A stretch of DNA of 64,000 bases from Myxococcota bacterium (lineage in GTDB: Bacteria > Myxococcota_A > UBA796 > UBA9615 > JAKLKC01), in NCBI GenBank assembly GCA_023150875.1, contig JAKLKC010000012.1:5565-69564 (forward strand), given 5' to 3'. Below are positions 3,459-61,549 of this stretch, piece by piece; within the stretch, counting starts at the first letter, position 1, and each line of letters opens with the position of its first letter. Under the pieces are notes generated by a model. That model saw nothing but the letters and a program-made list of their open reading frames with translations, was not told the DNA's origin and did no database searches. The translations under genes were made by a program, and so were the position numbers.

Positions 3459-4031
3459 GTGCTTGCCGAGCCCCTCGCGGTTGCGCTCCTGGTGGGAGAC
3501 GTCTTCGACGCGCTCGGGGTGCCTTGGGTCGTGGGAGGGTCTGTCGCGTCGTCGCTGCGTGGAGTCCCCCGCAGCACGCAGGACGTGGACATCGTCGCGG
3601 ACCTGCGCGGCCTGCACGTGGGCCCGTTCGTCGCGGCGCTGGAGGATCGCTTCTACGTCGATGCCGGCGCCGTCCGGGACGCCGTGGTGCGTCGTTCGTC
3701 CTTCAACCTCATCCACCTCGGTACCATGACCAAGGTGGACGTGTTCACGACGAAACCGGACCCGATGTCCCGCAGTGAGATGGGGCGGCGGCAACGCTAC
3801 GAGGCCGAGCCCGGGGTGATCCTCCCCGTCGCCAGCCCCGAGGACGTCGTGCTCCAGAAGCTCGACGGGTTCCGCAAGGGCGGCGGCGTGTCCGAACGCC
3901 AGTGGCGGGACGTGCTCGGCGTGCTGCAGGTGGGCGGACCTGGTCTCGACCACGACTACATGCGGCGTCTCGCAGGCGAGGTCGGACTTGCGGATCTGCT
4001 GGAGGACGCCCTGCGCGGCGCGGGGCCCTGA
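3459..4031 (+). CDS. nucleotidyltransferase family protein (190 aa)
   Basis: 'VVGGSVASSLRGVPRSTQDVDIVADL' = hG[GS]x9-13Dh[DE]h minimal NTase motif. Confidence 0.6.
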   Translation: MLAEPLAVALLVGDVFDALGVPWVVGGSVASSLRGVPRSTQDVDIVADLRGLHVGPFVAALEDRFYVDAGAVRDAVVRRSSFNLIHLGTMTKVDVFTTKPDPMSRSEMGRRQRYEAEPGVILPVASPEDVVLQKLDGFRKGGGVSERQWRDVLGVLQVGGPGLDHDYMRRLAGEVGLADLLEDALRGAGP

Positions 4032-17240: not shown

Positions 17241-17303
17241 TCGAGTACCGAGCCCAGGACGAGCCCCCCGCGTTTCGTCACCAAGCACCCGAACGCCCGC
17301 CGT
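17241..17303. repeat. left copy of imperfect direct repeat (37-bp perfect core 17257-17293), putative attL
   Basis: 17257-17303 matches 59839-59885 with 1 mismatch; weaker identity extends to 17241/59823. Confidence 0.6.
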
Positions 17304-17427
17304 GGGGGTCATGGGGGCAATCGTCGCAGTGGATCGCCCGCGGCGATCTGCGCGTGCCCCGGCATCGAGTCGCCCCGGTGGACGCCAGGGACGACCATGA
17401 GCATACTGATGCACAGGAGGCATCGCG

Positions 17428-17676
17428 ATGGCCCCGACCCGCCGCGCCCAGATCCTGATGGACCCCGAGGAGTACGATGAGCTGGCCCGCATCGCCGAGG
17501 CCAGGATGGTCTCCGTCGCGGAGCTGATCCGCAACGCCGTGCGCGTCGTCTACCTTCGGTCCCGAGACGACCGGCTGGCGACCGTGGGGCGCATCGTGGC
17601 CATGGACCTCCCTGTAGAGCCCTGGCCGCGAACGAAAGCGGAGATCGAGGATGCCTATGACGCCGGCCTTCCTTGA
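17428..17676 (+). CDS. vapB: VapB-like antitoxin
   Basis: 82-aa ORF with RBS 'aggagg' upstream; overlaps downstream PIN gene by 26 nt. Confidence 0.6.
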   Translation: MAPTRRAQILMDPEEYDELARIAEARMVSVAELIRNAVRVVYLRSRDDRLATVGRIVAMDLPVEPWPRTKAEIEDAYDAGLP

Positions 17677-18070
17677 CTCCAACGTCTTCATCTACGCGGC
17701 CGGCGCCGACGGCCCGCTGAAGGCACCCTGCGCGGAGATCCTCCGTCGCGTGGGCGCCGGAGAACTGGACGCCAACACGAGCGTAGAGGTCGTCCAGGAA
17801 CTCCATCACGTCTTCCGCCGGCGCGGTCGGCTTGCCGACGGGGTACGCCTGGCGCGTGACGTCGTGCGCCTCTTCCCCGGGCTGTTGTCGATCACGCGGG
17901 CTGATGTGTTGAGGTCGGGAGACATCCTGATGGCGCGGCCTCAACTGTCCCCCCGGGACGCCCTCCACGCCGCGACCGCCCTGAACAACGGGATCACCAC
18001 CATCATCTCGGTGGACGCGGACTTGGAACACGTCGATGGCCTGTCAAGGCTGGATCCCGCCGGAATGTGA
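17651..18070 (+). CDS. vapC: PIN-domain toxin VapC
   Basis: 'FLDSNVFIYA...' N-terminal Asp, conserved acidic residues, 'ISVDADL' C-terminal; ~139 aa. Confidence 0.75.
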   Translation: MPMTPAFLDSNVFIYAAGADGPLKAPCAEILRRVGAGELDANTSVEVVQELHHVFRRRGRLADGVRLARDVVRLFPGLLSITRADVLRSGDILMARPQLSPRDALHAATALNNGITTIISVDADLEHVDGLSRLDPAGM

Positions 18071-32685: not shown

Positions 32686-33614
32686 GCCTCGATCTCCTGC
32701 GCCCGCGGCCGCCCCGCGCTTCGGGGCCGCACCAACACGCGAGCCTCCGCCCATCTTCCCCCGCGGCGCCCCCTCCCGGCCGCCCCCGTCCGCCCGGCGC
32801 CGCTCCCGGGAGCGCCGGGGGCGGCCATTCTATTCCTTCCGCCCGGGATTTCACCCCCGCCCGGCGGGACCGTGCTCCCCCGCCCGCGTCCGGGCCCGGG
32901 CCCGGGCCCGTTCAGTCCCACCTCGGGAACAAGCGGCGCGCGACCGGGGGGCCATCCCGCCCTCCGGGGAGGGCGAGGGCGGGCGCGACAGTGGGGGCCT
33001 GACCGCCGCTCCGTCGCTCACCACGCCCCGTACGGCCCCCCTTCGGGGGGTCGGCGGCGAAACGTGAGTGACTGGGTGGGCGTCGAGGTCAAGCGTCCCC
33101 GCGGTCGCGGGCCAGCCGGAGGATCTCCTCGTGGAGCCAGCGGGTGAGCTGCTCCTCGGAGGAGGATAGGACGGACAAAGCGCCGATCTCGAGGGGGGCG
33201 CCGGGTATCGGGGGAGGCCACCTGGGTCCGCTCGGGGCGATTCGGCGCGGTAGCGAGCTGCGTGTGTGAGTTGTGTGGCATCGTGTGGACGCCTGGAAGG
33301 GCATCGGGCCTGCTGCGAGCGCTCGCCGGAGGGGGGATCGGCGGGGGTGCGCCGCGGAGGTCGGGCGAGTGAGGAGGTCGGGGCATGGGGGTGGGCCTGC
33401 GTGGCGGGGAGATGATCGCACATCGATGCCCGGGCATGCCTCGTCTGGACGGGGGAGTCGCCGGGAGCGCCGCGCGCGCCGGTGCGGAGCGGCTGCACTC
33501 TTGTCTTGAAGATGACGTTCGGGGCGCATTGATACCCATAGGGAAGGATTGGCCGCCCCGGTGAAAGCGGGCGCCGCCGGTCCGGTGTCCCCGCGCGCGA
33601 CGGGAGGCAGCCGC

Positions 33615-43920: not shown

Positions 43921-44915
43921 CCGGGGTCCTCGGTCGCGGGCTGGCTCTCGTCGTCCAGGATCACCAGGCGGGTGACTTGCAAGCGCCCCGTCCGGCGTCC
44001 GCCACCCGCGCGTCGGACTCCGTGGACCTCGACCCGTCGGTCGAGGGCCTCGATGGCCGTGTCGAGCAGCTCCGGCTCGAAGCCGCACGGGACCTCCAGG
44101 GCCGCATCGCCGACGTTCCGCAGCGTGAACGACAGGTTGTCGAGGTCGATCTCCCGCAGGTCCCCCGCGTAGGTCAGGACGACCTCCGAGGCGGCGGCGT
44201 CGATGGCCGCGTCGATCCGCCGATGGGCCGCGCGTGTCAGCGAGACGGGGCGCCCGCCGGCCGAAGGTCCCGACAGCTCGACCGCGTCGACCCCTCCCCG
44301 GGGGCGCGGGGCGAGGCGCTTGACTTCGGTCAGCAGCACCCGGCGGAGCCCCGCGTCGGGGACGCGCCGCGCGAGGGCGCCCTCGTCCTCGTCCGACCCC
44401 GCCCAGGCGGCCACCGTCGCGTACTTGTCCAGCGCTTCCCTCGCCGCGCCCGCGACGCTCCCCGCGTCGGCGTCCTCGCGCTCGGGAAGGCGCAGGCCGA
44501 CGCGGACGCTGCCCGGCCGCAGGCTCAGCACCTCCAGGTCGCAGGCCCGCTGGATGGCGAGGGTCGGACGGGTCGAGAGGGACCCGGTGGCGATCCACTC
44601 GGTCCCCGACTGGATCCCCTTGCGGAGCGTGTTGAGGAAGGTGGTCAGGACGCTCGTCGGCGTGGCGGGCCAGTCGATCCCGGCGCCGCGGACTCCGAGC
44701 CAGAGGGGGGCCTCCGCCTCCTCGGCCACCGCCCGCCCGGTGTACTCGCGCAGGTCGGCCTCCATCCGCCGGATCTGGTCGAGGGGCCCCTCCGACATGA
44801 CCGCGAACCAGGCGTCGCTCAGGCGGGGACGGTCCCGCTCCAGAGCGGCCAGCGACTCGTACATCCGAGCGAGCTGCTGGAGCGTGACGCGGAGCTCGGT
44901 GTCGTTGCGGATCAT
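43917..44915 (-). CDS. uncharacterised protein (332 aa) translationally coupled between an NTase-like gene and pglZ
   Basis: ATGA overlaps at both ends (44912-44915 and 43917-43920); no known motifs recognised. Confidence 0.55.
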   Translation of the reverse strand: MIRNDTELRVTLQQLARMYESLAALERDRPRLSDAWFAVMSEGPLDQIRRMEADLREYTGRAVAEEAEAPLWLGVRGAGIDWPATPTSVLTTFLNTLRKGIQSGTEWIATGSLSTRPTLAIQRACDLEVLSLRPGSVRVGLRLPEREDADAGSVAGAAREALDKYATVAAWAGSDEDEGALARRVPDAGLRRVLLTEVKRLAPRPRGGVDAVELSGPSAGGRPVSLTRAAHRRIDAAIDAAASEVVLTYAGDLREIDLDNLSFTLRNVGDAALEVPCGFEPELLDTAIEALDRRVEVHGVRRAGGGRRTGRLQVTRLVILDDESQPATEDPG

Positions 44916-45355
44916 GGCGTCACCTTCAGGATGCCCTTCGCCCGACCGTCCCGGGTGAGCTGGAAGTATTCCATGTGGCGTGCCAGCGCGGGCGTGCCTT
45001 CCGCGCCGACGAGCACGTCGAACCCGTACCTCGTCCCCACGCGCCGGCGGGAGAGGAGGTTGTACTCGAAAGGGCGCAGCTCGGACTGGAAGTCGTGGTC
45101 CGCACGGAGGGCGAGCACGAGGTCGATGTCCCCGGGATCGGGCTCGGCGGTCACGAAGCTCCCGTCGACGGCGAGCCAGGCGATGGCGGGCGTGGTCCTC
45201 GCCTCGGCCAGGAAGGCGCGCAACCTCTCCACGAGCACATGGCGACCGGGATGCCCCAGGCAGAAGCGCCCGAAGCGCTCGCGCACCTCCGCGAAGGTGC
45301 ACTCGTGCACCCCCGGAGGCAGCAGCCCGTCGGGGGTCAGCTCCGGGATCGGCAT
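44912..45355 (-). CDS. nucleotidyltransferase-like small protein (DUF-type, 'TPDGLLPPGVH' family)
   Basis: 'LAVDGSFVTAEPDPGDIDLVL' fits GSx9-13DxD NTase motif; N-terminal 'PELTPDGLLPPGVHECTFAEV' signature. Confidence 0.55.
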   Translation of the reverse strand: MPIPELTPDGLLPPGVHECTFAEVRERFGRFCLGHPGRHVLVERLRAFLAEARTTPAIAWLAVDGSFVTAEPDPGDIDLVLALRADHDFQSELRPFEYNLLSRRRVGTRYGFDVLVGAEGTPALARHMEYFQLTRDGRAKGILKVTP

Positions 45356-45482
45356 GGCGCCTCGGGGAGAAGCGGGGAGAGCTGGCGGGCGGAACGGCTC
45401 ATGCACGGTCCCCGACCGGCCTGCGGTCCGCCACATCGGGCGCACCGATCCGGGGGATGCTGCCGGAGGGCGGGAGCGCGGC

Positions 45483-45542
45483 GACGCCCCGGCGCCGCGC
45501 GGCGCGCACCAGCTCGGCGAGGTGGGTGTGGAACGGGCTCAT
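45483..45542 (-). pseudogene. remnant of a second pglZ 5' end (20 codons, MSPFHTHLAELVRAARRRG...)
   Basis: 45483-45542 ~ 43861-43920 at nt level incl. ATGA junction; similarity stops abruptly. Confidence 0.5.
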
Positions 45543-46228
45543 CCGGGGCCCTCGGCGCGGAGGCGGCCCTGGCGGCGGAGCTGCCTCGCCACCAGCGGGC
45601 ACTCGCAGGCCAGCCAGGAAAGGGGCCACGGTTCCGGCGGATCGTCCGGGTCGGTCCGCAGGCCGTGGTACCGGTCGTGGTATTCCGCACGTGCGTCACA
45701 GAAGACGGGGTCGTTGAGGCCCAGCCTCGAGATCGTCGCCTCGACCTTCGCCCGGACCTCGGCTTCCAGGTCGTCCGCCGGGGCGATCTCGAAGCTCGCC
45801 ACGTCCAGCGTGAACCAGTGGTCCTGGACCTCGAAAGGGTCCAGCACGTCCTCGTGGTCGCCCTTGTTGGTGTTCACCTGGGCGGCCGCGAGGCGGAAGT
45901 TCGACCACTCGTAGGCGAGGCGCCGGTCCCTCGACTTGGGGACGAAGTGGTCGACCGTGGCGGCTCCCGTCGCCTCGTGGATGCGCATGCCCAGGTAGCC
46001 GCACACGTTCCCGTAGCGCCGCCGGAGCTCGGGCAGCGCGCGGGTCCAGAACGTGGGGAGGTTCTCCACGGGGATGGCGTCGATGGTCGTCGCCACGACG
46101 CTCCGCTTGCGGCCTCGCCGTGGGGGACCCGAGGTATCACCGACGAGTTCACGGAGGGCTCGCTCGCCCGGGATCCTCACGAGCTCGTCGAAGTCGGCCG
46201 GTTCCTCGGCGGGATCGACGTGGATCAC
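45539..46228 (-). CDS. HNH endonuclease (PtuB-like)
   Basis: 'CGYLG...VDHFVPKS...WSNFRLAAAQVNTNK' HNH motif; GTGA overlap with upstream ATPase. Confidence 0.7.
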   Translation of the reverse strand: MIHVDPAEEPADFDELVRIPGERALRELVGDTSGPPRRGRKRSVVATTIDAIPVENLPTFWTRALPELRRRYGNVCGYLGMRIHEATGAATVDHFVPKSRDRRLAYEWSNFRLAAAQVNTNKGDHEDVLDPFEVQDHWFTLDVASFEIAPADDLEAEVRAKVEATISRLGLNDPVFCDARAEYHDRYHGLRTDPDDPPEPWPLSWLACECPLVARQLRRQGRLRAEGPG

Positions 46229-47511
46229 GCGGGCTCCGGCGGAAGGTGCTGCGACATGAAGTGCCGCCAGCGGACGAAGAAGGGGTCCATCGCCGGGAGG
46301 AGGCGGCCGAGATCGGCATCGACGTTCCGGATCCGGTCCGGGTCGGGTGAGGGCTCACGAATGAGCCGGCGGGCGGCTTCGATGGCCCTCTCCGCGTCTA
46401 CCGACGTCGCCTCGCCGAGATCGAATACGTCGGAGCGGAGCCACCGGCTCGCGTCGCCCCTCAGGTGCCACTCGTCCTTTGCGATCTGGACCATCCCGTC
46501 CACCAGGTCGAGCTTCCACAGGGCGTCCCGGGAGGGGTCGAACACGGGCTCCATCGAGGCGAGGATCAGGGGGGAATGGGTCGCCACCAGGAACTGGACG
46601 TCGGGAGCGGCGTCGTCGTGCCACCCGCGCACGGCCTCGTGGATGCCACGAAGCACCGTCCGCTGCCACCTGGGGTGGAGGTGGGTCTCGGGCTCGTCGA
46701 TGAGCACGATCAACTGGCGCGACATGGGCCTGCCCATGCTGGCGCTCTCCCGCTCGTGGGCGGACAGGGACCAGGCCAGCAGGTAGGCCAGCTTGCACAT
46801 CCGCTGCACCCCCGCCGGGGCGTATGTGATGGGGACGTCCTGGCCGTAGGGCATGGATACGGTGGGGATCGCCCGGTCGTCGTCGGGGTACGGGTACCGT
46901 GGCTCTCCCGGCCGCAAGGGTTCTCCTTCGGGGCCCAGGGCGGCCAGCAGCCTGCGGAGCAGCTCGAACCTCGGGTCCTCGCTGCGCTGCCAGAGGATCC
47001 AGTCCAGGATCAGCCCGGAGCAGATCGTCTGCTCCCGCTCCTGGCCGCCCTCGGTGATGGTCCGACGCAGGCCGTGGAAGACCTGGCGTGGGCTGAACTG
47101 GTATGCCGGTGGCGCCTCGATGTTACCGCCGTCGGGGCGCTGATAGAGGCGGTAGTTCCGAGCCGGGTCCCAGGCCGAGAACGAGCCGTCCACGCGAGCG
47201 TACAGGACGAGGCCCGGGTTCGGGGGGCGGCCCGGGGCCCGCCGCCAGGTCTGGGCTCCCGGGAGCCACTTGGAGACCGCTTGGTGGGGTCGCCGTTCCC
47301 CGTCGAAGGCGAAGGCGATCTCGGCGTCCTGCGCGTTCGGGACCGCGGGCGACTCGTGCCAGGTGCGGGTCAGGGCCCACCACCCCACATCCAGCAGGAA
47401 CGACTTCCCGAGCCCGTTGTCCCCGGTGATCAGGTTGAAGCGGCGCGCGATGGGGTCCATCACCAGCGACGCGCCGGGCCCGACCCGGGTGAGCTTCAGC
47501 TTCCTCAGCAT
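46225..47511 (-). CDS. AAA/ABC-type ATPase (PtuA/OLD-like)
   Basis: Walker A 'TGDNGLGKS', Walker B 'LIVLIDEPETHLHP', 'ATHSP'; ATG overlaps pglX stop (TGATG at 47509-47513). Confidence 0.7.
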   Translation of the reverse strand: MLRKLKLTRVGPGASLVMDPIARRFNLITGDNGLGKSFLLDVGWWALTRTWHESPAVPNAQDAEIAFAFDGERRPHQAVSKWLPGAQTWRRAPGRPPNPGLVLYARVDGSFSAWDPARNYRLYQRPDGGNIEAPPAYQFSPRQVFHGLRRTITEGGQEREQTICSGLILDWILWQRSEDPRFELLRRLLAALGPEGEPLRPGEPRYPYPDDDRAIPTVSMPYGQDVPITYAPAGVQRMCKLAYLLAWSLSAHERESASMGRPMSRQLIVLIDEPETHLHPRWQRTVLRGIHEAVRGWHDDAAPDVQFLVATHSPLILASMEPVFDPSRDALWKLDLVDGMVQIAKDEWHLRGDASRWLRSDVFDLGEATSVDAERAIEAARRLIREPSPDPDRIRNVDADLGRLLPAMDPFFVRWRHFMSQHLPPEPA

Positions 47512-50500
47512 CAGGAATCCTCGGCGGGCGGCGCCTTGGGCAGCGCCAGGTCGAGCTGGTGACTGCGCTCCTGACCGCGCCGGGGGCGCTCGGGAGCGGC
47601 TCGCGCCGGACGCCCCGGGGACCGGCGGGCCGGCGCGGGCGGCGGCGTGTGGGTGAGCTTCGCCAGGGCGTCCTTCACGGCGGGGGAGGTGCGCTCCCTC
47701 ACGAGGGACTCTACGACGTCGCCCTCGACCTCGCGGGGAGACCACCGACCGTCCTCGTCCGGGCACCAGAAGACGTCCTCCAGGCCGTGGGCGATGGCGA
47801 GGCTGCGGTCCAGGGCGCACTTCGGGACCACGCGCTCGGGCCACAGGCGCATGGCCAGGTGGGACCAGTCGTACTCGGCCTCGCAAAGGCGGGCGAAGGC
47901 GCCCTCGCACTCCTTCTGCCAGCTCCGGGTGTGGGCGAAGAGGCGGTGCAGCGGCGCGGCGTTGAGGATCACGCCGTCGTCGAGGTCCGGGTCCCACAGG
48001 GGGGCCACCCGGGCGACCTCGTCCCGGAAGGCGCGAAGCTCGTCCACGAAGGCCTCCTGCTCGGCCAGGGCGCGCCGCTGGGAGGGCGTGGGCGTGCCGC
48101 CGACCTCGGCGCGGAGGTGGGCGAGGCGCCCCTCCTCGAAGCGCAGCTTGGGCGCGACGTGGTCGTGGAGGACGCGGTGCAGGGTGTCCCGGGCGAAGCG
48201 GTGGATGTAGACCCACACGCTGTAGCTGCCCGAGGGGGTGCCCAGGCGCCAGTAGATGGGGGCCTTGCGGCGGCTCCGCGAGTAGCGCTGGACGTGCTCG
48301 GCGAAGAAGGCCCGCCTCAGCCAGGGGCGCAGGTCATCGGCGCCGGGGTCGAGGAGGGCGGTCGCCTCCCTGAGGCGCTCGTCGCCGTCGTCGCCGAAGA
48401 CCACGTCGAAGACCCGCCGGATGCACCCGAGCAGGTCGCGCTCGTGGCCGGGGTCGTCGACGAGGATCCCGTCGGTGGGGAAGGCGATGGGGTAGCCGGC
48501 GGGCGGTGCGTCCGCGGGCAGGCCGTCCTCGCCGGTCAGCATGCCCGGGGAGCAGGGGGGGAGGGGATCGAAGGGGTCGGGCTCGGGCGGTAGCGGGCGC
48601 TCGCCGGTGGCGAGGCGGATGTCGAAGCGGCCGTATGCCGTGCCCACGAGCGCGCTGACTACGGGCATCACCACCTCAGCAGCACCGAACTCGGGGGACC
48701 ACGCCGTGCTGAGTTTGCGCACATCGTCGGACGCGGTCACCCCGAACAGTTGTGCGATTTCGTCATCAATGACAGCTAACGCTTCATTGAATTTGTGGAG
48801 CTCCACCTTCCTCCGGCAATGCTCATCCGCAACAAGGCCGCGACCGACTCCAGTTCCGTAGATATGCGCAGGCATTCCACCAAACGTAGGATCCAATTCA
48901 TCCAAGCCGCGAAGAGCCCTAGCCGCGCTAATCGCTATCATACTGGCATGTTCAACGCGCTTCTTGACCTCCTCTTGTGGCCACCGCCAATTCAGCGACT
49001 TCACCAGCCCGGTCGGGAATGCGGAAGCTGTGGACCGGCTCATTACGGCCTTTCGCGTAACGGCGGCGTTCAACCATCCGACGAGATATGCATTGCTAAC
49101 GGACTCTGTGATGGAAATAACGGCGGGGCCGACAATCGACATGATGACACCCCGGGGTAGGTTCCGAACTGCAAATCCGAGCGTCGACCGGTACGAGTAC
49201 GTTGCCCCGCCCCTGTACCACCACGAAGATCCCGTTCGGCACTGCGCCGTCTGTCCATTGATGGCCATGTTCACAGCATCTAGCTCCGCTCCGTCCTGCC
49301 TTCGGTTCAGGACCAGATGGACGTCGCCGTAGAATGGCTGGAATTCGCCCCCTTTGGCATACCGTGCCCAGCACTTGGGTGATAGATCTCTGGCATTGAC
49401 TTCAGTCCAGATGCGGAGGAACCGCTCGTCGTCATGAGTCAGCGGCCCTTGACGAGCTGTTCCTGCTGCGGGTTCGAACGACTCGCTTTGTTCCCCGATC
49501 TGCGTGGATGCCAGTGCTCCACCTGTCAATACTTGATGTGCTACGCTCATGACTATTTGCCGCCGCGCCCGCCACGCTGGATCACGAGGACGACCGGCAG
49601 AAGCAGCGAGGAGGGCTTCCGCGCTTTGCCCCGGTTCGCCCGAGACCACGAATACCGAGTCTTCTGCACTTCCGGGGGCGCCGGCCAGTACAAAGTAACA
49701 GGCCCGGACTACAGCATCGTCCATGAGCCCCATTCCAGCATCGACCAGTATTGCGAAGCGATCGTTGAACTTGTGCCTCCTCCAGCGACCAAGTCTCTTG
49801 GTTGTCAGCACGCTATTGGGAGCCACAACACCGATCGGTCCATTCGTCAGTTCGGCTGCACGGTCGACAAGAGCCGCAGATGCCTCGACGTACGAGAGGG
49901 AGCGATTTCGCCTTAGAAGCAGGAATGGAGAATCGGGGAGCCTCCCAAACGGCGGATTCATCAACACCACGTCGTACCGCCCCCGGCACACGTCGATGAA
50001 CGCGAACCCCCGCGCCGCGTCCTCGGCGAACAGCCTCCTCCGGTACGCGTTCCCGGTCGTCGCCCCCTCGGCGTACTCCCTCAGCGCCTCGTAGACCTTG
50101 CCCTCGACCTCCTCCCACCGCTCCCGGTCCAGCCGCGCGTACATCGGCCCCCGGCTGAACCGCTTCTCCAGCTCCTGGCGCACCGTGTCCTCGATGCGCA
50201 GCAGGGTCCCGGCCTCGCCCGCGAGCCTCATCTCTTCGAACACCCGCCGCACCAGGGCGGCGACGTCGGGGTCCAGGCCCCAGCAGAACTCGTCCAGCAG
50301 GTCCGCCTCCCCCGGCATGGGCTCGGCGATCACCACGTTCGTCCGGGTCACGAGCGGTCGCTTCGCGCGGTCCAGGCCCAGGTCCTTCCACGCCCTCTGG
50401 GCCCGCATCCACAGCGCCAGTGCCGCGATCTGGGCGGCCCGGGGGTCGATGTCCACCCCGTACAGGTTGTGCCTCAGGACCAGCCCCGGCAGCTCCCGCC

Positions 50501-55817: not shown

Positions 55818-56602
55818 GGCGACAACTCCTCCCGCGCGAACTCCTCGGCGGACGCGCGGGGCAGGCGGAGCTCGGCGACGCTGCCGGCGACCTCGTAGCG
55901 GAGCCGGCCGAGCTGGTGGAGGCGGAACAGCTCCCGTTGCACGTCGTCGGGCCCCATGAGGTACATCCGCCAGTCCGGGGCGTGGACCAGGCGGTGGGGG
56001 TTGGGCTCCTCCCGGGCGGCGGCGTGGAGCAGGTAGAGGAAGGCGTCGTCGGGCAGGTGGTAGGGGACGAACTCCCGGGCGAGGGTCCCGGTCATCAGCC
56101 CGAAGTCCACGGCCATGCGGAGCAGGCCCGAGGCGACGCGGGAGGTGGTGGAGGGGGACCAGCGCTCCTTGATCTCCACGTCCTCGCGGTCGTGGAGGCC
56201 GTCGAGGTAGGGCGCGACGTCCTCGGTGCGGATCCGGAAGGCGCCGGCGGCGTGCTGGTCGTAGAGCCACCGCGACAGGAAGTCGCGCACCAGGAACTCG
56301 TCCCGGGTCATGTGCCACAGGAGCAGGGGGCGGAAAGTCTCGAGGGCGAGGCCGCGCCGGGCCAGCTCGACGAGGACTCGGTCGCGGCCCTCGGTGTCGA
56401 AGCGACGGTTGACGGTCTTGGCCAGGTCCCGCCACCAGTTCGCGCTGCCGGCGCCGACGGGGTCCGCGGACTTGAGGCGGTCGAGGTTCCACTTCCGGGG
56501 CCGGGAGAGGTCCCAGTGGCGGAAGAGGTCGTAGGTGGGCTCGACGAGGGCCCCCTTGATGACGGTGAACGACGAGACGACCCGGGCGCGCGCGCCGGCC
56601 AT
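55814..56602 (-). CDS. brxA: BREX protein BrxA (DUF1819)
   Basis: N-terminal 'VVSSFTVIKGALVEPTYDLF' matches BrxA 'YSSGF...' start; ATG overlaps upstream stop (TGATG). Confidence 0.7.
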   Translation of the reverse strand: MAGARARVVSSFTVIKGALVEPTYDLFRHWDLSRPRKWNLDRLKSADPVGAGSANWWRDLAKTVNRRFDTEGRDRVLVELARRGLALETFRPLLLWHMTRDEFLVRDFLSRWLYDQHAAGAFRIRTEDVAPYLDGLHDREDVEIKERWSPSTTSRVASGLLRMAVDFGLMTGTLAREFVPYHLPDDAFLYLLHAAAREEPNPHRLVHAPDWRMYLMGPDDVQRELFRLHQLGRLRYEVAGSVAELRLPRASAEEFAREELSP

Positions 56603-57156
56603 CACCCCTCCAGGCGGGCGTAGGGGATGGCGGGGGCCTCCCTCTCGCCCCGGAAGAAGCCGGCGGCGAGCAGGCCGAGGGTCTCGTCGTCGAGGGCGCA
56701 CACCCCGGGGAGGGGGACGGCGCGCCCGTCGACGGAGCGCTTGAGGTGGCGGGCCCGGGCCAGCTCGGCCTCGCCGAGGACCTCCAGGGAGCGCAGGCCG
56801 TGGAGCACGTCGCCCTGCAGCCCCGTCAGCGCGGCGAAGAAGGGCGCCCAGCGGTCGGGCTGGTCCATCCAGTCCTGGAGGTGGTCCTCGAAGACCTCCT
56901 CGACCTCGGGGGGGAGGCTGAACAGGGTGGCGCAGGCCGGGGGGTTCCAGAGCTCCCGCGTGCGGGCGCGGGCCACGGCGAGCGCGACCCGGGCCTGGGC
57001 GAACGGGGCGGTGCGAGGGAAGCTCCGCTCGTACAGGGTGCGTCCCAGCGGCCCGAGGACGCCCCGGGTGTTCCACCAGCCCAGCCGGTCCATCTCGCCG
57101 AGGCGCGCCACCACGAGGCGGAGCCGGAAGAGGCGGTCGAAGTCGATCGCGTGCAT
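56602..57156 (-). CDS. hypothetical protein (185 aa) translationally coupled upstream of brxA
   Basis: ATG at 57154-57156; stop overlaps brxA ATG; no recognised motifs. Confidence 0.5.
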   Translation of the reverse strand: MHAIDFDRLFRLRLVVARLGEMDRLGWWNTRGVLGPLGRTLYERSFPRTAPFAQARVALAVARARTRELWNPPACATLFSLPPEVEEVFEDHLQDWMDQPDRWAPFFAALTGLQGDVLHGLRSLEVLGEAELARARHLKRSVDGRAVPLPGVCALDDETLGLLAAGFFRGEREAPAIPYARLEG

Positions 57157-57625
57157 TCGAGACCCGCGGGGAGGGCGGTGGCGGCGGCCCCCGTCCCGGC
57201 GGGCGCACCCGGCGCGAGCGCGCCCGCCCGGGCGCATTCTCTCGCGTCGGCGACGGCGGGTGAAGGGGAGGGGAGCGTGGGGAGGGGCGATTGCCGGGAT
57301 CGATCCGGGATCCCCCACGGTCGGGGAAGGGGAGTCGAGGCGGTAGACCCGGCGTCCCCGAGGGTCGAGGAAGGGTGGTCTACCCCCTCGATCCGGCATG
57401 ACCCGAGGCAGCCGCAGTCAAGGCGTAGCCGGATCGCCCGCCACGGCAGAGCCAGCGCGTCGCGAGGAGCCGTGCGAGGTCGGGGTGATCCCCACCGCGG
57501 TCCCCGAGCCGCCGGACGATCATGCCAGGGCCGGCGAGGGCCAAGACGGCAGCATCCACGCATGTCATCCCTCGGTCGCGCATGTCAGGACGCGGATACC
57601 GGCTTCCGCTGGCCGCGGAAGGCCC

Positions 57626-57786
57626 TGACCACGTGCCCGAACTGTGGTCAGCTCGCCTGACCACGCCGTTGACCGCGCCGTGCCAGCCCGTTGACCGCGC
57701 GCTGACCCCGCTCCGCCCCGCCGCCGACCACGCCCCGAGGGGTCGCTGACCACGTCCGGGAGCCTCCGCCGCGTCCATGTGGTCAG
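57626..57786. promoter_or_regulatory. array of GCTGACCAC[AG] repeats (3 direct, 2 inverted) plus 2x GTTGACCGCGC
   Basis: CTGACCACG at 57625, 57657, 57746; inverted GTGGTCAGC at 57644 and 57780; between BREX operon 5' end and recombinase gene. Confidence 0.4.
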
Positions 57787-58312
57787 CGGATCTGCTGGCC
57801 CGGCGCGGGGTTGGCTGGCTACCGTCAGAGGCAACGACGGGCGCTGGATCCACCCCGGGCCCTCGTTGTCCCTGGACCGTCGGCGCAGCCAACTGCGCGC
57901 CGCCGGTCGGAGGCGAGATGATGCCCGCCGCCGCCGACGCGCCCGCCATCTCCGACGGCACCCCGCGCCCGTTCGGGGGCAATGATCCCGACGACGGCGC
58001 ATTGACGTGGCCCGTCGCGGCGGCCGTCGGCGCCTGCCCGTCCTGCGATCTGACGGCGCCGGACGCTGCCAACGGTGCCGTCGGCGTCGGCATGGGACCG
58101 AACAGCGGCCAGGCGGCATGCACCGTTCGCGGCACCCGTCCTCGCGTCCCGACGGTGGGTCTCCGCCTGACCGCGACGGGGCCCCCCTCGTTCCGGGCGT
58201 GGGCGTCCTGCCTGACCCTCGGCGACCTGGAGGACGTGCTGCGGAAGGCGGTCGCGTAGGCGGCGACGTTACGTCAAGTTCTCGGCGTCCCACCCCATCT
58301 GGAGCCTCCGCC

Positions 58313-60082
58313 ATGCCCATCGTCGGAGCCGCCTACCTGCGGTGCAGCGACCCCCGCCAGGACAAGAGCATCGAGCAGCAGCGAGAGGAGATCCTCCGCC
58401 GCGCCGAGGCCGACGGCGTCGTGATCCCGCCCGAGAACTGGTTCGTGGACGAGGGCCTCAGCGGGCGCTCGACACGGAAGCGCCGCGCCTATCTGGATCT
58501 CATCCGCGTGGCCGAGGTCCAGCGCGACGCCCGCACCGAAAAGCGCCGCGCCCAACCCCAGCGCATCGACCGGCTCTACGTCTGGGCCTTCAGTCGCCTC
58601 GCCCGCAACATGTTCGATGCCCTCCGCGCCTTGGCGGCACTCGACGAGGCCGACATCGACGTGGTCTCGCTCACCGAGCCCGATGCCGGGGATCGCTCCT
58701 TCCGGAAGCTGATCCGGCCAATCCTGGCATGGCTCGCCGAGAGGTACAGCGAGGAGTTGTCCCGCAACGTCCAGCGCGGCATGCGGTCCCAGGCCGAGCG
58801 GGGTTTCTGGCAGTACGGGAACCCGCCCTACGGTTACGCGCTCGAGGAGGGCCGGCTCGTCGTCACCGACGAGACCCGCGCCGACTTCGAGACCGTCCGG
58901 CGCGTCTTCGCGGTCTACCTCGAAGGCCGAGACGGGGCGAAGCGTCTCGCCGAGAGACTCACCGCCGAGAGCATCCGGCCGCCCTCGCGGCGCGATTGCC
59001 CGCGCGATCGGCTCGGCTACGCCTGGCGCCCCAAGCACGTCCTCCAGATCCTTCGAAACCCGGTGTACTGCGGCCACATCGTCCACGACGGCGAGGTCGT
59101 CGCCCGCGGGGTCCACGAGGCCGCGGTGTCCGACGAGGACTTCGCCCGGGTCGCGGCGCTCCGAAAGCTCAAGGAGCGCGTCAAGCTCGACGGAATCGGG
59201 AACGGCCACCACCCGATCCACATCGGCGAGCGCGGGCTGTTCACCCCCTGGCTCCGCTGCGGCTCCTGTAGCGGGCGCATCCGCGTCACCGTCGGCGGGC
59301 GCTCGGGGAAGGCCGACTACTTCTACTACTCATGCGCCTCCCGCGCCGAGAACAAGGCCACCTGTCCCGGCCTGTCCATCCGGACCGAGAAGCTGGACGA
59401 GGCGGTCCTCGCCTACATCCACGACCACGTCCTGTCCCCCGTCAACGTCCAGGCCCTCATCGATCGGTCCCTCGCCGATCTGGCCGAGCAGCCCGACGAC
59501 ATCGCCCAGCAGCGCGCCGCGATTGAAGCGACCATCGCCGAGCTGGACCGCCGTATCCGCCTCGTCGGCCACCAAGTCCTGGACGGCATCCTGGCCCCGT
59601 CCGACGCGAAGGCGCTCAACGCCCCGCTGCTCGCCCAGCGCGAGACCGCCCAGCTCCGGCTCGCCTCCCTGCCGCAGCGGCGCGAGTTGCCCACCGTCGT
59701 CGACTGCGACCGCTTCCGCGCGGCCGTGCTGGAGGCGTGGACGGCGAAGCCCCTCGACGACCGCCGCGCCGCGCTGGACCGTCTGCTCGACCGGATCACC
59801 CTCGGCGAAGCCGGCGCCCATATCGAGTACCGCGCGAAGGACGAGCCCCCCGCGTTTCGTCACCAAGCACCCGAAGGCCCGCCGTACACCCCCATGTCCG
59901 CGCGGGTGCCGTCGGGGTCGTTCCAGGTGGGATCGGGGTCGGCGGCGTCTCGGAGGGGGGAGGTGGGGCGGAGGTGCCAGTCGTCGTTGTCGGGGTCGCC
60001 GTCGGGAGTGGCGGTCACGAAGGCGGGGTCCACCGAGAGGTTGCCGTCGGTGCCCGTCCAGGGGCGGATGGCGCCGTCGTAG
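58313..60082 (+). CDS. large serine recombinase (integrase)
   Basis: 'AAYLRCSDPRQ' catalytic Ser region, 'VWAFSRLARN', recombinase domain, zinc ribbon 'CGSCSGR...CASRAENKATC', coiled-coil; ORF reads through the repeat so true C-terminus is uncertain. Confidence 0.8.
   Translation: MPIVGAAYLRCSDPRQDKSIEQQREEILRRAEADGVVIPPENWFVDEGLSGRSTRKRRAYLDLIRVAEVQRDARTEKRRAQPQRIDRLYVWAFSRLARNMFDALRALAALDEADIDVVSLTEPDAGDRSFRKLIRPILAWLAERYSEELSRNVQRGMRSQAERGFWQYGNPPYGYALEEGRLVVTDETRADFETVRRVFAVYLEGRDGAKRLAERLTAESIRPPSRRDCPRDRLGYAWRPKHVLQILRNPVYCGHIVHDGEVVARGVHEAAVSDEDFARVAALRKLKERVKLDGIGNGHHPIHIGERGLFTPWLRCGSCSGRIRVTVGGRSGKADYFYYSCASRAENKATCPGLSIRTEKLDEAVLAYIHDHVLSPVNVQALIDRSLADLAEQPDDIAQQRAAIEATIAELDRRIRLVGHQVLDGILAPSDAKALNAPLLAQRETAQLRLASLPQRRELPTVVDCDRFRAAVLEAWTAKPLDDRRAALDRLLDRITLGEAGAHIEYRAKDEPPAFRHQAPEGPPYTPMSARVPSGSFQVGSGSAASRRGEVGRRCQSSLSGSPSGVAVTKAGSTERLPSVPVQGRMAPS
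59823..59885. repeat. right copy of imperfect direct repeat (perfect core 59839-59875), putative attR
   Basis: See 17241..17303; covers the last 8 codons + stop of gene 59860..61527. Confidence 0.6.
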
Positions 60083-61527
60083 TCGGTGGGGTCGTTGTCG
60101 AAGACGTCGTTGAAGGCCACGGTGGAGAGGTCGTTGGTGCCGTAGATGCCCGCGCCGCCGGTGTTGCGCCACACGACGTTGCCCCGGAGATCGGGGGAGT
60201 TGCTGGCCCGCACCAGGACGCCGCCGCCCTGGCCGCCGGGGCAGTCGTTCCAGGCGATGACGTTGTGGAAGAGGGCCGGCGACGCCTCGCCCTCGTAGAA
60301 GGCGATCCCGCCGCCGAAGGCGTTGGCCTCGTTGGCCGCGATCACGTTGTTCTCCACCACCAGGGCCACCGAGTTGTGGACCTCGATCCCGCCGCCCTGG
60401 CCCCCCTGGGTGGCGTCCACGTCGTAGGCGGAGTTCCCGTAGATCACGTTGTGGACGATGTGGTCCGAGGAGCCGGCCAGCCAGATCCCGCCACCGTCCC
60501 CCGCCGTGTTGAAGCGGATGACGTTGCCCTCCACCAGGCAGGAGGAGGAGCGGACGAAGATCGCCCCGCCGTCGTTGCCCTCCTCCACTCCCCCCCAACC
60601 CGCGTCGTTGCCCTCGATGAGGTTCCCCAGGATCGAGGGCGCTCCCGAGCGGACGAAGATCGCCCCGCCCTGGGCGAAGTCGATGGCCGCGTTGGAGGAG
60701 ATCACGTTGCCCTCGATGACCGGCGAGGCGGAGTCGACGTGGATCCCGCCCCCCTCCACCGCCGCGCCGTTCGTCAGGGTGAAGCCGGAGATCTGCGAGG
60801 CCGAGCCCTCGCCGCTGGCGAAGGTGACGACCGAGCCCGCGCCCCCGCCGTCGATGAAGGTGTCCGGGGGGCCGGTCACCGCCTCCACCCGGACCGCCGC
60901 GCCCCGGAAGTCCACGTTCTCGTAGTAGGTCCCCTGGAAGACCCGCACCAGGGAGCATCCCACCGCGGCGGCGTGGTCCAATCCCCCCTGCACCGTCGCG
61001 AACGGGCGGGTGAGGGTGCCCTCGTAAGGAGCCGTGGCCACCTGGTTCACGTAGGTCGGGCAGTCGTCCAGGCAGTCCACCAGCCCGTCGCCGTCGTCGT
61101 CCCAACCCTCGTCCACCGCGCCGTCGCAGTCGTCGTCCACGGAGTTGCACTGCTCGCTCGCCGACGGATGGATGGAGGCGTCCGAGTCGTCGCAGTCGCC
61201 CCCCTCCAACGTCCAGCCGTCCCCGTCGTCGTCCGTGCCCGAGGGGGTGGTGTCGTCGTCCGTGGGGGCGGTGTCGTCGTCGGGCGTGGTGTCGTCGTCC
61301 GGCGGGGTGGTGTCGTCGTCGGGCGTGGTGTCGTCGTCGGGCGGCGTGGTGTCGTCGTCCCCCGCCGAGTCGTCGTCGGCGGGGGTGGTGTCGTCGTCCA
61401 CCGGCGCCGAGTCGTCGTCGGAGCCCCCACCGCCCAGCAGCGGGTCCTCGTCCCAGTCGGAGCACCCCCCGACCAGGAGGGCGAGCAGCGGCGGGAGGGC
61501 CGCCCGGACGTAGCGTGCAAGGTGCAT
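59860..61527 (-). CDS. putative lipoprotein with parallel beta-helix repeats and acidic DDDTTPP tandem repeat
   Basis: Signal/lipobox 'LLALLVGGCS'; repeated 'GGxIxVxxSSxxVxGNVI' beta-helix units; C-terminus ...GGPSGAW lies in the repeat. Confidence 0.65.
   Translation of the reverse strand: MHLARYVRAALPPLLALLVGGCSDWDEDPLLGGGGSDDDSAPVDDDTTPADDDSAGDDDTTPPDDDTTPDDDTTPPDDDTTPDDDTAPTDDDTTPSGTDDDGDGWTLEGGDCDDSDASIHPSASEQCNSVDDDCDGAVDEGWDDDGDGLVDCLDDCPTYVNQVATAPYEGTLTRPFATVQGGLDHAAAVGCSLVRVFQGTYYENVDFRGAAVRVEAVTGPPDTFIDGGGAGSVVTFASGEGSASQISGFTLTNGAAVEGGGIHVDSASPVIEGNVISSNAAIDFAQGGAIFVRSGAPSILGNLIEGNDAGWGGVEEGNDGGAIFVRSSSCLVEGNVIRFNTAGDGGGIWLAGSSDHIVHNVIYGNSAYDVDATQGGQGGGIEVHNSVALVVENNVIAANEANAFGGGIAFYEGEASPALFHNVIAWNDCPGGQGGGVLVRASNSPDLRGNVVWRNTGGAGIYGTNDLSTVAFNDVFDNDPTDYDGAIRPWTGTDGNLSVDPAFVTATPDGDPDNDDWHLRPTSPLRDAADPDPTWNDPDGTRADMGVYGGPSGAW
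61230..61440. repeat. in-frame tandem ~21-bp repeats (gtcgtcgtc-rich) encoding (DDDTTPP)n
   Basis: Visible periodic 'ggtggtgtcgtcgtcgggcg' units. Confidence 0.5.
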
Positions 61528-61549
61528 GATCCCGCGCCCCGCCACCGGC

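Follow-up and report, generated by a model that had tools for sequence, protein, structure and literature searches.

The window analysed here, a 64,000-nucleotide stretch of a Myxococcota bacterium genome, contains nine copies of a short word, five exact and four with one mismatch, within 162 bp (57625-57786) between a BREX operon and a gene for a large serine recombinase (LSR). We find that this array is real, non-random and helically phased, and comparison of related loci shows that it belongs to the LSR module, in which a short open reading frame (orfA) precedes the LSR gene, and not to BREX. Our preferred reading, which we hold with moderate confidence, is that the sites form an operator-type array that would control orfA-LSR expression in a mobile defence island. 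In keeping with this, multiple phased and selectively maintained sites lie upstream of the recombinase operon and are conserved together with it; among the module genes searched, no cognate DNA-binding regulator was identified.

Layout and statistics of the repeat array

The features of the array and of the module that it precedes are as follows, with positions given in the window.

57625..57651, no strand: inverted pair IR1, CTGACCAC-N11-GTGGTCAG (sites 1 and 2), forming the left boundary of both the array and the module common to the related strain L097
57657..57753, plus strand: six direct sites (sites 3-8, at 57657, 57669, 57691, 57702, 57724 and 57746), with an 11.0-bp period together with site 1
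57746..57787, no strand: inverted pair IR2, GCTGACCACGT-N21-ATGTGGTCAGC (sites 8 and 9), with GGAG in the spacer and ATG 57777 in the right arm
57791..57911, plus strand: ~120-nt imperfect palindrome or hairpin that separates the array from the orfA start, with the orfA ribosome binding site (RBS) GGAGG (57909-57913) at its 3' base
57918..58259, plus strand: short orfA, 113 aa, with GGAGG as RBS; an independent gene caller gives the same 113-aa ORF
58313..60082, plus strand: LSR gene, 589 aa, with Resolvase, Recombinase and Zn_ribbon_recom domains, located at the island's right end
59823..59886, no strand: right island junction (attR, P arm), 100% identical to L097 from 59876 onward

A first-pass annotation of this sequence had reported five copies of a motif in ~160 bp, three direct and two inverted, and two copies of GTTGACCGCGC at 57668 and 57690. 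All of these are present, the former as exact CTGACCAC at 57625(+), 57644(-), 57657(+), 57746(+) and 57779(-). Four one-mismatch copies (TTGACCGC at 57669 and again at 57691, CTGACCCC at 57702 and CCGACCAC at 57724) complete the array, in which seven sites are direct and two inverted. We count the sites at 57669 and 57724 as true members because the orthologous arrays in L097 and L098 read CTGACC at both positions.

The word is enriched over background. Exact CTGACCAC occurs seven times in the window against 2.35 expected, a count that none of 100 shuffles reached, and five of the seven copies are packed into 162 bp, with just two elsewhere in the 64 kb. In 300 first-order Markov simulations, the maximum number of copies per 200 bp was two for the exact 8-mer, of which we observed five, and four for the degenerate word YTGACCVC, of which we observed eight. 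The CTGACC hexamer is at background in the window as a whole (49 copies versus 51 expected), indicating that the signal is purely local and positional. The seven plus-strand sites are spaced 32, 12, 22, 11, 22 and 22 bp apart, which corresponds to an 11.0-bp period (R = 0.98), and Tandem Repeats Finder likewise detects periods of 11 and 22 bp in the array.

The two inverted pairs span 27 bp (IR1) and 42 bp (IR2), most sites of the array are direct, and the recombinase gene starts 530 bp away. An invertible promoter switch bounded by IR1 and IR2 was rejected: seven independent assemblies of the window strain are 100% collinear and identical, the shared arms are ~10 bp long, and the word also occurs in direct orientation between them. 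When folded as RNA, IR1 gives -14.4 kcal/mol (z = -2.1) and IR2 gives -27 kcal/mol (z = -3.4), and the palindrome at 57791-57911 reaches -83.3 kcal/mol (z = -4.6), a stability that none of 200 shuffles attained. The ATG at 57777 is in frame with orfA, and a start at this codon would possibly yield a product of 160 aa. A 12-nt string, GGAGCCTCCGCC, precedes both this ATG and the LSR ATG at 58313 (57759-57778 and 58301-58320); it may be a chance occurrence or a duplicated translation-initiation context.

As judged by codon-position GC, the stretch from 57157 to 58312 is non-coding up to about 57850. Consensus scans of 57000-58500 for sigma-70-like promoters and for terminators detected none, and a manual search for sigma-54 and ECF-type promoters gave nothing convincing. 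A tRNA search found none nearby, and Rfam returned only one meaningless sub-threshold miRNA match. On the brxE-proximal side of the array there is an inverted repeat at 57335-57391 (27-nt arms, 78% complementary, 3-nt loop), in a stretch that is absent from L097.

A function of the iteron or partition type would also be compatible with the geometry of the direct repeats, and the first-pass annotation had called the array iteron-like. Under such a reading, the sites would serve to maintain the island as an excised circle, either as a replication origin or as a centromere-like (par) site. The direct repeats, with their periods of 11, 21 and 22 bp and their inverted companions, recall origins of the pSC101 or P1 type, and the seven direct sites exceed the at least three direct repeats at a period of ~22 bp that define an iteron array, although only about 8 bp per unit are conserved. 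The label is thus fair as a description of geometry. Against it, the GC content is 0.68-0.82 in every 120-nt window of 57160-58300 (73% for the 64-kb window), a range that leaves no AT-rich unwinding region. The word was also rejected as a DnaA box (TGTGGTCAG versus TGTGGACAA), since only two of the nine sites agree at seven of nine positions and the word of a sister family, CTGACCGG, is incompatible. Further evidence on this reading comes from the gene neighbourhoods of related arrays, which are described below.

The recombinase module and the island that it borders

As first noted, the array lies between the start of the BREX operon and the recombinase gene. Its nearest BREX gene is brxE (57156..56602, minus strand; BrxE model NF033447, 125.9 bits), the first gene of a minus-strand, type 1-like cluster that comprises brxE, brxA, brxB, brxC, pglX, a Septu-type PtuA ATPase gene, pglZ and brxL and extends down to 39312. 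The Septu-type ATPase gene (PADLOC E = 8e-141) is accompanied by a DUF6932 gene, and the two occupy 44912-48216 on the minus strand, inside BREX between pglX and pglZ. The array is located 470-630 bp from the brxE ATG, inside a divergent region of 1.15 kb.

Members of the orfA family are ~155-165 aa long, lie directly upstream of nearly all related LSR genes, and end ~50 bp before the LSR start. Virtually every locus preserves their C-terminal ~40 residues, RPRVPxVG..T..G.PS..AWASCLxLGDLE.AL.KAVA. In the window, only these C-terminal ~40 aa (RPRVPTVG...WASCLTLGDLE..LRKAVA) match the family, and the N-terminal domain is missing. No match to orfA was found in Pfam, NCBIfam, PADLOC, PHROG or PDB sequences. 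At 50% identity, the family falls into only 35 clusters among 1.84 billion representatives, several of them short forms that consist of the C-terminal part only, and a single-sequence AlphaFold model has a pLDDT of 45, too low to be of use. We regard the family as previously undescribed, and as a candidate directionality factor or cofactor of the recombinase.

Identity of the LSR itself to phage LSRs in GenBank does not exceed 26%, and the nearest NCBIfam models, XisF and CcrA/B, both score far below their cut-offs. Homologues at 50-85% identity are numerous in metagenome-assembled genomes (MAGs) of Myxococcota, often in several copies per MAG and often at contig ends. Single MAGs can carry at least eight diverged copies of the LSR module (66-92% DNA identity), for example L005, L020, L024, L027, L032, L047, L064 and L071, all from one MAG. 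Among such multi-copy modules, homology stops at the LSR stop codon, and many of the copies lie at contig ends. Domain and family searches recognised no HTH or other DNA-binding domain in the array-orfA-LSR module.

The LSR gene and a MopE/beta-helix gene on the minus strand (59860..61545) overlap at their 3' ends, and the same overlap is found in L081, whose LSR is 85% identical, in the P0004 contig and in L045. L097 represents a closely related strain, with flanking genes that are 98% identical at the protein level, and allows the island to be delimited. To the left, the chromosome is common to the window and L097 up to ~33038, and to the right it is common again from 59876. Between these flanks, the window has 26.8 kb with BREX and Septu (33039-59886) versus 9.4 kb in L097 (1593-10958), where the cargo is a type I Cas operon (Cas3/GSU0053/GSU0054) with toxin-antitoxin genes and no BREX. 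Because L097 has different cargo between the same flanks, BREX is exchangeable cargo of an LSR-borne island, and the two strains, each with a related array-orfA-LSR module beside the cargo, differ by a swap of defence-island cargo at the LSR insertion site in the 3' end of the MopE/beta-helix gene. Only the chromosomal flanks and the orfA-LSR module are common to the window and L097, and no regulator gene is shared between the two islands.

This strain comparison places the crossover at ~59876-59886, so that the array is 2.1 kb inside the island. Exact CTGACCAC is absent from the junction regions and att arms of the window, L081 and L097. An LSR att site, which would be an imperfect palindrome of ~40-50 bp at the boundary, was rejected as an identity for the array on account of this distance, of the att arms without the word, and of L081, which is inserted at the same site and has no array.

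Several other observations concern the island boundaries. The LSR 3' end and P arm (59823-59885) recur as a 63-bp direct repeat of 93.7% identity at 17241-17303, and this second copy may mark an older, larger, second or outer island boundary. It is followed at 17304 by GGGGGTCATGGGGGCAATCG, a string also present at the corresponding place in L081 (~1978), and then by an RHH-PIN toxin-antitoxin pair at 17428-18067. Near the left edge of the variable region (33034-33064) lies a conserved GC-rich hairpin motif, GGCCCNCCTTCGGGGGGTCGGCGGCGAAACG, that is also present inside the L081 island (3866-3896). Logan assemblies of the window strain break at or near the array and attR, at 57593, 57652, 57863 and 59867 (the ends of L093, L095, L096 and L090), which may reflect strain variants that co-occur in the samples.

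The cargo swap bears directly on the proposal of the first-pass annotation that the array controls BREX transcription, in which case it would be an operator or enhancer of the divergent operon brxE-brxL. Its place in the divergent region upstream of brxE is consistent with this role. The reverse complement of the word core, GGTCAG, also has the NNNNAN shape that we know from BREX methylation motifs, and motifs of such a type have been reported (PMC9122589). However, although GGTCAG might be the methylation motif of this BREX system, such a motif fails to explain an array that occurs without BREX and a hexamer that is at background elsewhere. L097 carries the orthologous array beside its Cas operon, where the left neighbour is Cas_GSU0053 and not BrxE, and the first repeat is the exact point at which homology to the window sets in. 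Arrays of the CTGACC type in L026 and L030 likewise adjoin other, non-BREX cargo. Between the brxE start codon and the near end of the array there are 470 bp, whereas BrxR, where characterised, has one 25-bp pseudo-palindrome at -51 to -27 as its site (PMC9122589), and domain and family searches of the neighbouring genes found no WYL/BrxR regulator gene in the region. We therefore consider a BREX operator very improbable, and annotation should not assign the array to BREX control.

Conservation of the array and arrays in other subfamilies

With the short orfA as query, two relatives at 76-81% identity were found, L097 and L098, and both contigs carry the array upstream of short orfA and LSR. 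L098 retains all nine sites at the same spacing. L097 retains the nine positions, with three sites mutated, and its LSR is truncated. The non-coding array and the next 120 nt are 85-93% identical to the two orthologues (88-93% for the palindrome at 57791-57911), compared with 87-89% for orfA coding DNA and 76% for the 5' part of the LSR gene in L097. The 49 pairs of the hairpin are largely retained in both, without compensatory changes. Relative to the window, substitutions in cores versus spacers number 3/72 versus 9/104 in L098 and 7/72 versus 17/104 in L097. The cores in this three-member family thus have about half the substitution rate of the spacers, a difference that is not significant alone and that has the same direction as in the L026 family described next.

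Searches among 80 related LSR loci revealed no DNA homology to 57160-58137, and exact CTGACCAC is not enriched in any of them; each subfamily has a word of its own or no array. In L026, L030, L014 and L031, five direct repeats of GCTGACCG (CTGACCG) lie at exactly 21-bp steps from -518 to -434, and a CTGACC-N9-GGTCAG pair at -352/-337 is found just before the short-orfA RBS. Among the direct repeats of the L026 family, 18 of 18 core columns are invariant versus 19 of 54 spacer columns (Fisher p = 5e-7). This contrast bears the signature of short protein-binding sites and shows purifying selection on the cores. L025, L032, L038 and L041 have seven to eight copies of a different word, ACAGCNGTTGCCGC, at the same position before the LSR module, with spacings of 13, 21, 22, 33, 21, 42 and 21 bp and with whole 21-bp units gained or lost between loci; the 13- and 22-bp steps indicate that this array is not a coding repeat. 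Further arrays of their own are present in L029 and L015. In all three families checked (those of the window, L026 and L025), the repeat word is confined to the array. A metagenome scan for CTGACCAC-N9-13-GTGGTCAG-N3-8-CTGACCAC was uninformative, as its eight matches were seven low-GC satellite-like sequences and one GC-rich palindrome at a contig end.

These comparisons help in judging whether the array is a functionless relic, a local duplication of GC-rich sequence at the place from which the orfA N-terminal part and an HTH gene have disappeared. The window orfA does lack the N-terminal domain of its family, and there is no HTH gene. The individual mutated sites in L097, with its truncated LSR, and the 11- and 22-bp duplication seen by Tandem Repeats Finder would fit as well. 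The strong selection on cores alone in the sister L026 family argues against decay, as does the nine-site layout shared by the three orthologues, in which the degenerate window copies at 57669 and 57724 read CTGACC in both of the others. Conservation of the non-coding block equals or exceeds that of the neighbouring coding DNA, and independent LSR subfamilies have arrays at the same position. We thus judge a relic to be improbable.

The same neighbourhoods bear on the replication or partition reading raised above. The arrays of the L025 type, as true 21-bp tandem units with copy-number variation, are in its favour. However, there is no rep, primase or par gene beside the array in the window, in L097 or in other families, and the island genes that were examined encode no Rep, primase or Par domain. 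The left neighbours of the arrays differ (BrxE, Cas, proteins of unknown type), and in the CTGACC families 6-9 bp per unit are constrained, fewer than in a Rep iteron. An origin or par site is therefore quite unlikely, and of the earlier iteron-like description only the geometry stands, in view of the missing rep gene, AT-rich region and DnaA boxes.

The closest LSR, that of L081, has no array upstream. Instead, L081 carries a divergent XRE-type HTH gene, a 213-aa gene and a full-length orfA. We searched the 1.8 kb upstream of every LSR for HTH homologues, using as queries the L047 type, which is co-directional, and the L081 and L099 types, which are divergent. An HTH homologue is present in 31 of 52 array-less loci versus none of the 12 array-bearing loci (the window, L097 and ten others); these 12 represent about five lineages only, so that the mutual exclusivity is suggestive rather than strong (roughly p = 0.03 with relatedness taken into account). 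The pattern fits two alternative control designs for the same operon, one with an array and one with an HTH gene. In L099, which has the HTH design, the corresponding space holds a TTGACG-N18-TACATT promoter and a palindromic operator-like sequence. Four copies of GACCACGCC upstream of the L047 LSR were rejected as an array, being a coding Thr-Pro repeat in an XRE-type HTH gene. Since most LSR modules have no array, the arrays are dispensable for recombination.

Models of function and comparison with known systems

The operator-type array that we favour would work as follows. A sequence-specific protein would read the ~8-bp word CTGACCAC, about one major-groove contact, and would dock as dimers at IR1 and IR2. 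It would bind cooperatively on one helix face along the seven direct sites, with their 11- and 22-bp steps, and its binding would set how strongly transcription or translation of the orfA-LSR operon is initiated. This would in turn determine the timing of island excision and mobility. Layered control is hinted at by the placement of IR2 around GGAG and an in-frame ATG, and by the 120-nt palindrome that ends at the orfA RBS. Because array-bearing modules have no module HTH gene, the regulator would not be module-encoded. As the module contains no recognisable DNA-binding protein, the host or a co-resident element probably provides the binder in trans. We infer the operator role from the pattern and conservation of the sites, and the direction of regulation, the identity of the binder and the choice between DNA-level and RNA-level action have the same standing. 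The strong hairpins are compatible with a role at the RNA level instead of the DNA level.

The first-pass annotation had also suggested integrase or excision control. This broader idea fits all of the associations found; its binder was not recognised among the module genes. A more specific form of it would make the sites accessory (arm-type or res-like) sites, on which the LSR, or orfA as directionality factor, assembles to control excision versus integration. The array lies inside the recombination module beside orfA-LSR, and the motif differs between LSR subfamilies, both of which are compatible with such a role. The mix of sites also resembles res subsites, the inverted recombinase-binding motifs that serine resolvases need right beside their gene, although here most sites are direct and the gene lies 530 bp off. 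In addition, inverted pairs with phased direct repeats resemble arrays of the Xis/Cox/RdfS type (PMC11963761). The 2.1 kb between the array and the crossover argues against this reading, and the same distance would separate it from attP in the excised circle. The att arms lack CTGACCAC, and the L081 LSR acts at the same insertion site with no array. To our knowledge, large serine recombinases need no accessory DNA sites. Finally, the universally conserved part of orfA is the same C-terminal 40 aa, whereas the repeat word varies. We consider accessory sites unlikely. A wider version, in which the array would be an accessory nucleoprotein platform where orfA, the LSR or a trans factor from a helper or co-resident island licenses excision of this family of defence islands, we hold to be just as unlikely. 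If it were true, it would give serine integrases their first described control region of the arm-type or trans-sensing kind, and it would explain the loss of the module's own repressor gene in array-bearing modules.

Returning to the operator reading, its interest lies in the recombinases concerned. LSRs are valued as genome-engineering tools and are thought to need two short att sites and, for excision, a directionality factor. The LSR family described here has a conserved partner, orfA, and several of its lineages also maintain a phased array in place of a module-encoded repressor. This suggests a layer of regulation that governs the timing of movement between Myxococcota strains for islands with BREX, Septu, CRISPR-Cas or toxin-antitoxin genes. 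We know of no repeat arrays described upstream of large serine recombinase operons, and found none in the literature searched.

Among regulated BREX systems, the BrxR (WYL) operator of an Acinetobacter type I BREX is a 25-bp pseudo-palindrome that overlaps the -35 box, with brxR adjacent, and is part of a predicted extended stem-loop (PMC9122589). Like that operator, the array is upstream of a BREX operon and near predicted stem-loops. Unlike it, the array has nine short sites and no brxR, and it travels with the recombinase module, not with BREX.

As a mobile element, the island resembles SCCmec-type elements (Ccr) and the Vibrio cholerae PLE, in which an LSR at one island end is reported to be combined with exchangeable anti-phage cargo (PMC11470126, PMC9410903). 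It differs from both in the low identity of its LSR to phage LSRs (at most 26%) and in its undescribed orfA partner. We know of no upstream repeat arrays reported for SCCmec-type elements or PLE.

Theta plasmids such as pSC101, P1 and RK2 carry direct repeats at about two helical turns together with inverted copies near a gene start. The array shares these features. It differs from such iterons in having no rep gene, AT-rich region or DnaA boxes, and in a constrained core of 6-9 bp.

The boxes of P2 Cox and 186 Apl are multi-site operators of excision modules. Likewise, RdfS of ICEMlSymR7A binds both attP and its own promoter (PMC11963761). As in these systems, the array presents several phased sites upstream of an int/xis-type operon. 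In the Cox, Apl and RdfS systems, a small oligomerising protein couples transcription control to excision. Those systems use tyrosine integrases and a module-encoded wHTH directionality factor, whereas the module described here has a large serine recombinase and no recognisable DNA-binding protein, and its array, unlike theirs, is 2.1 kb from the crossover. In proposed function and in layout, the array most closely resembles the multi-site operators of excision modules (Cox/Apl, RdfS), and in geometry it resembles plasmid iterons with companion inverted repeats.
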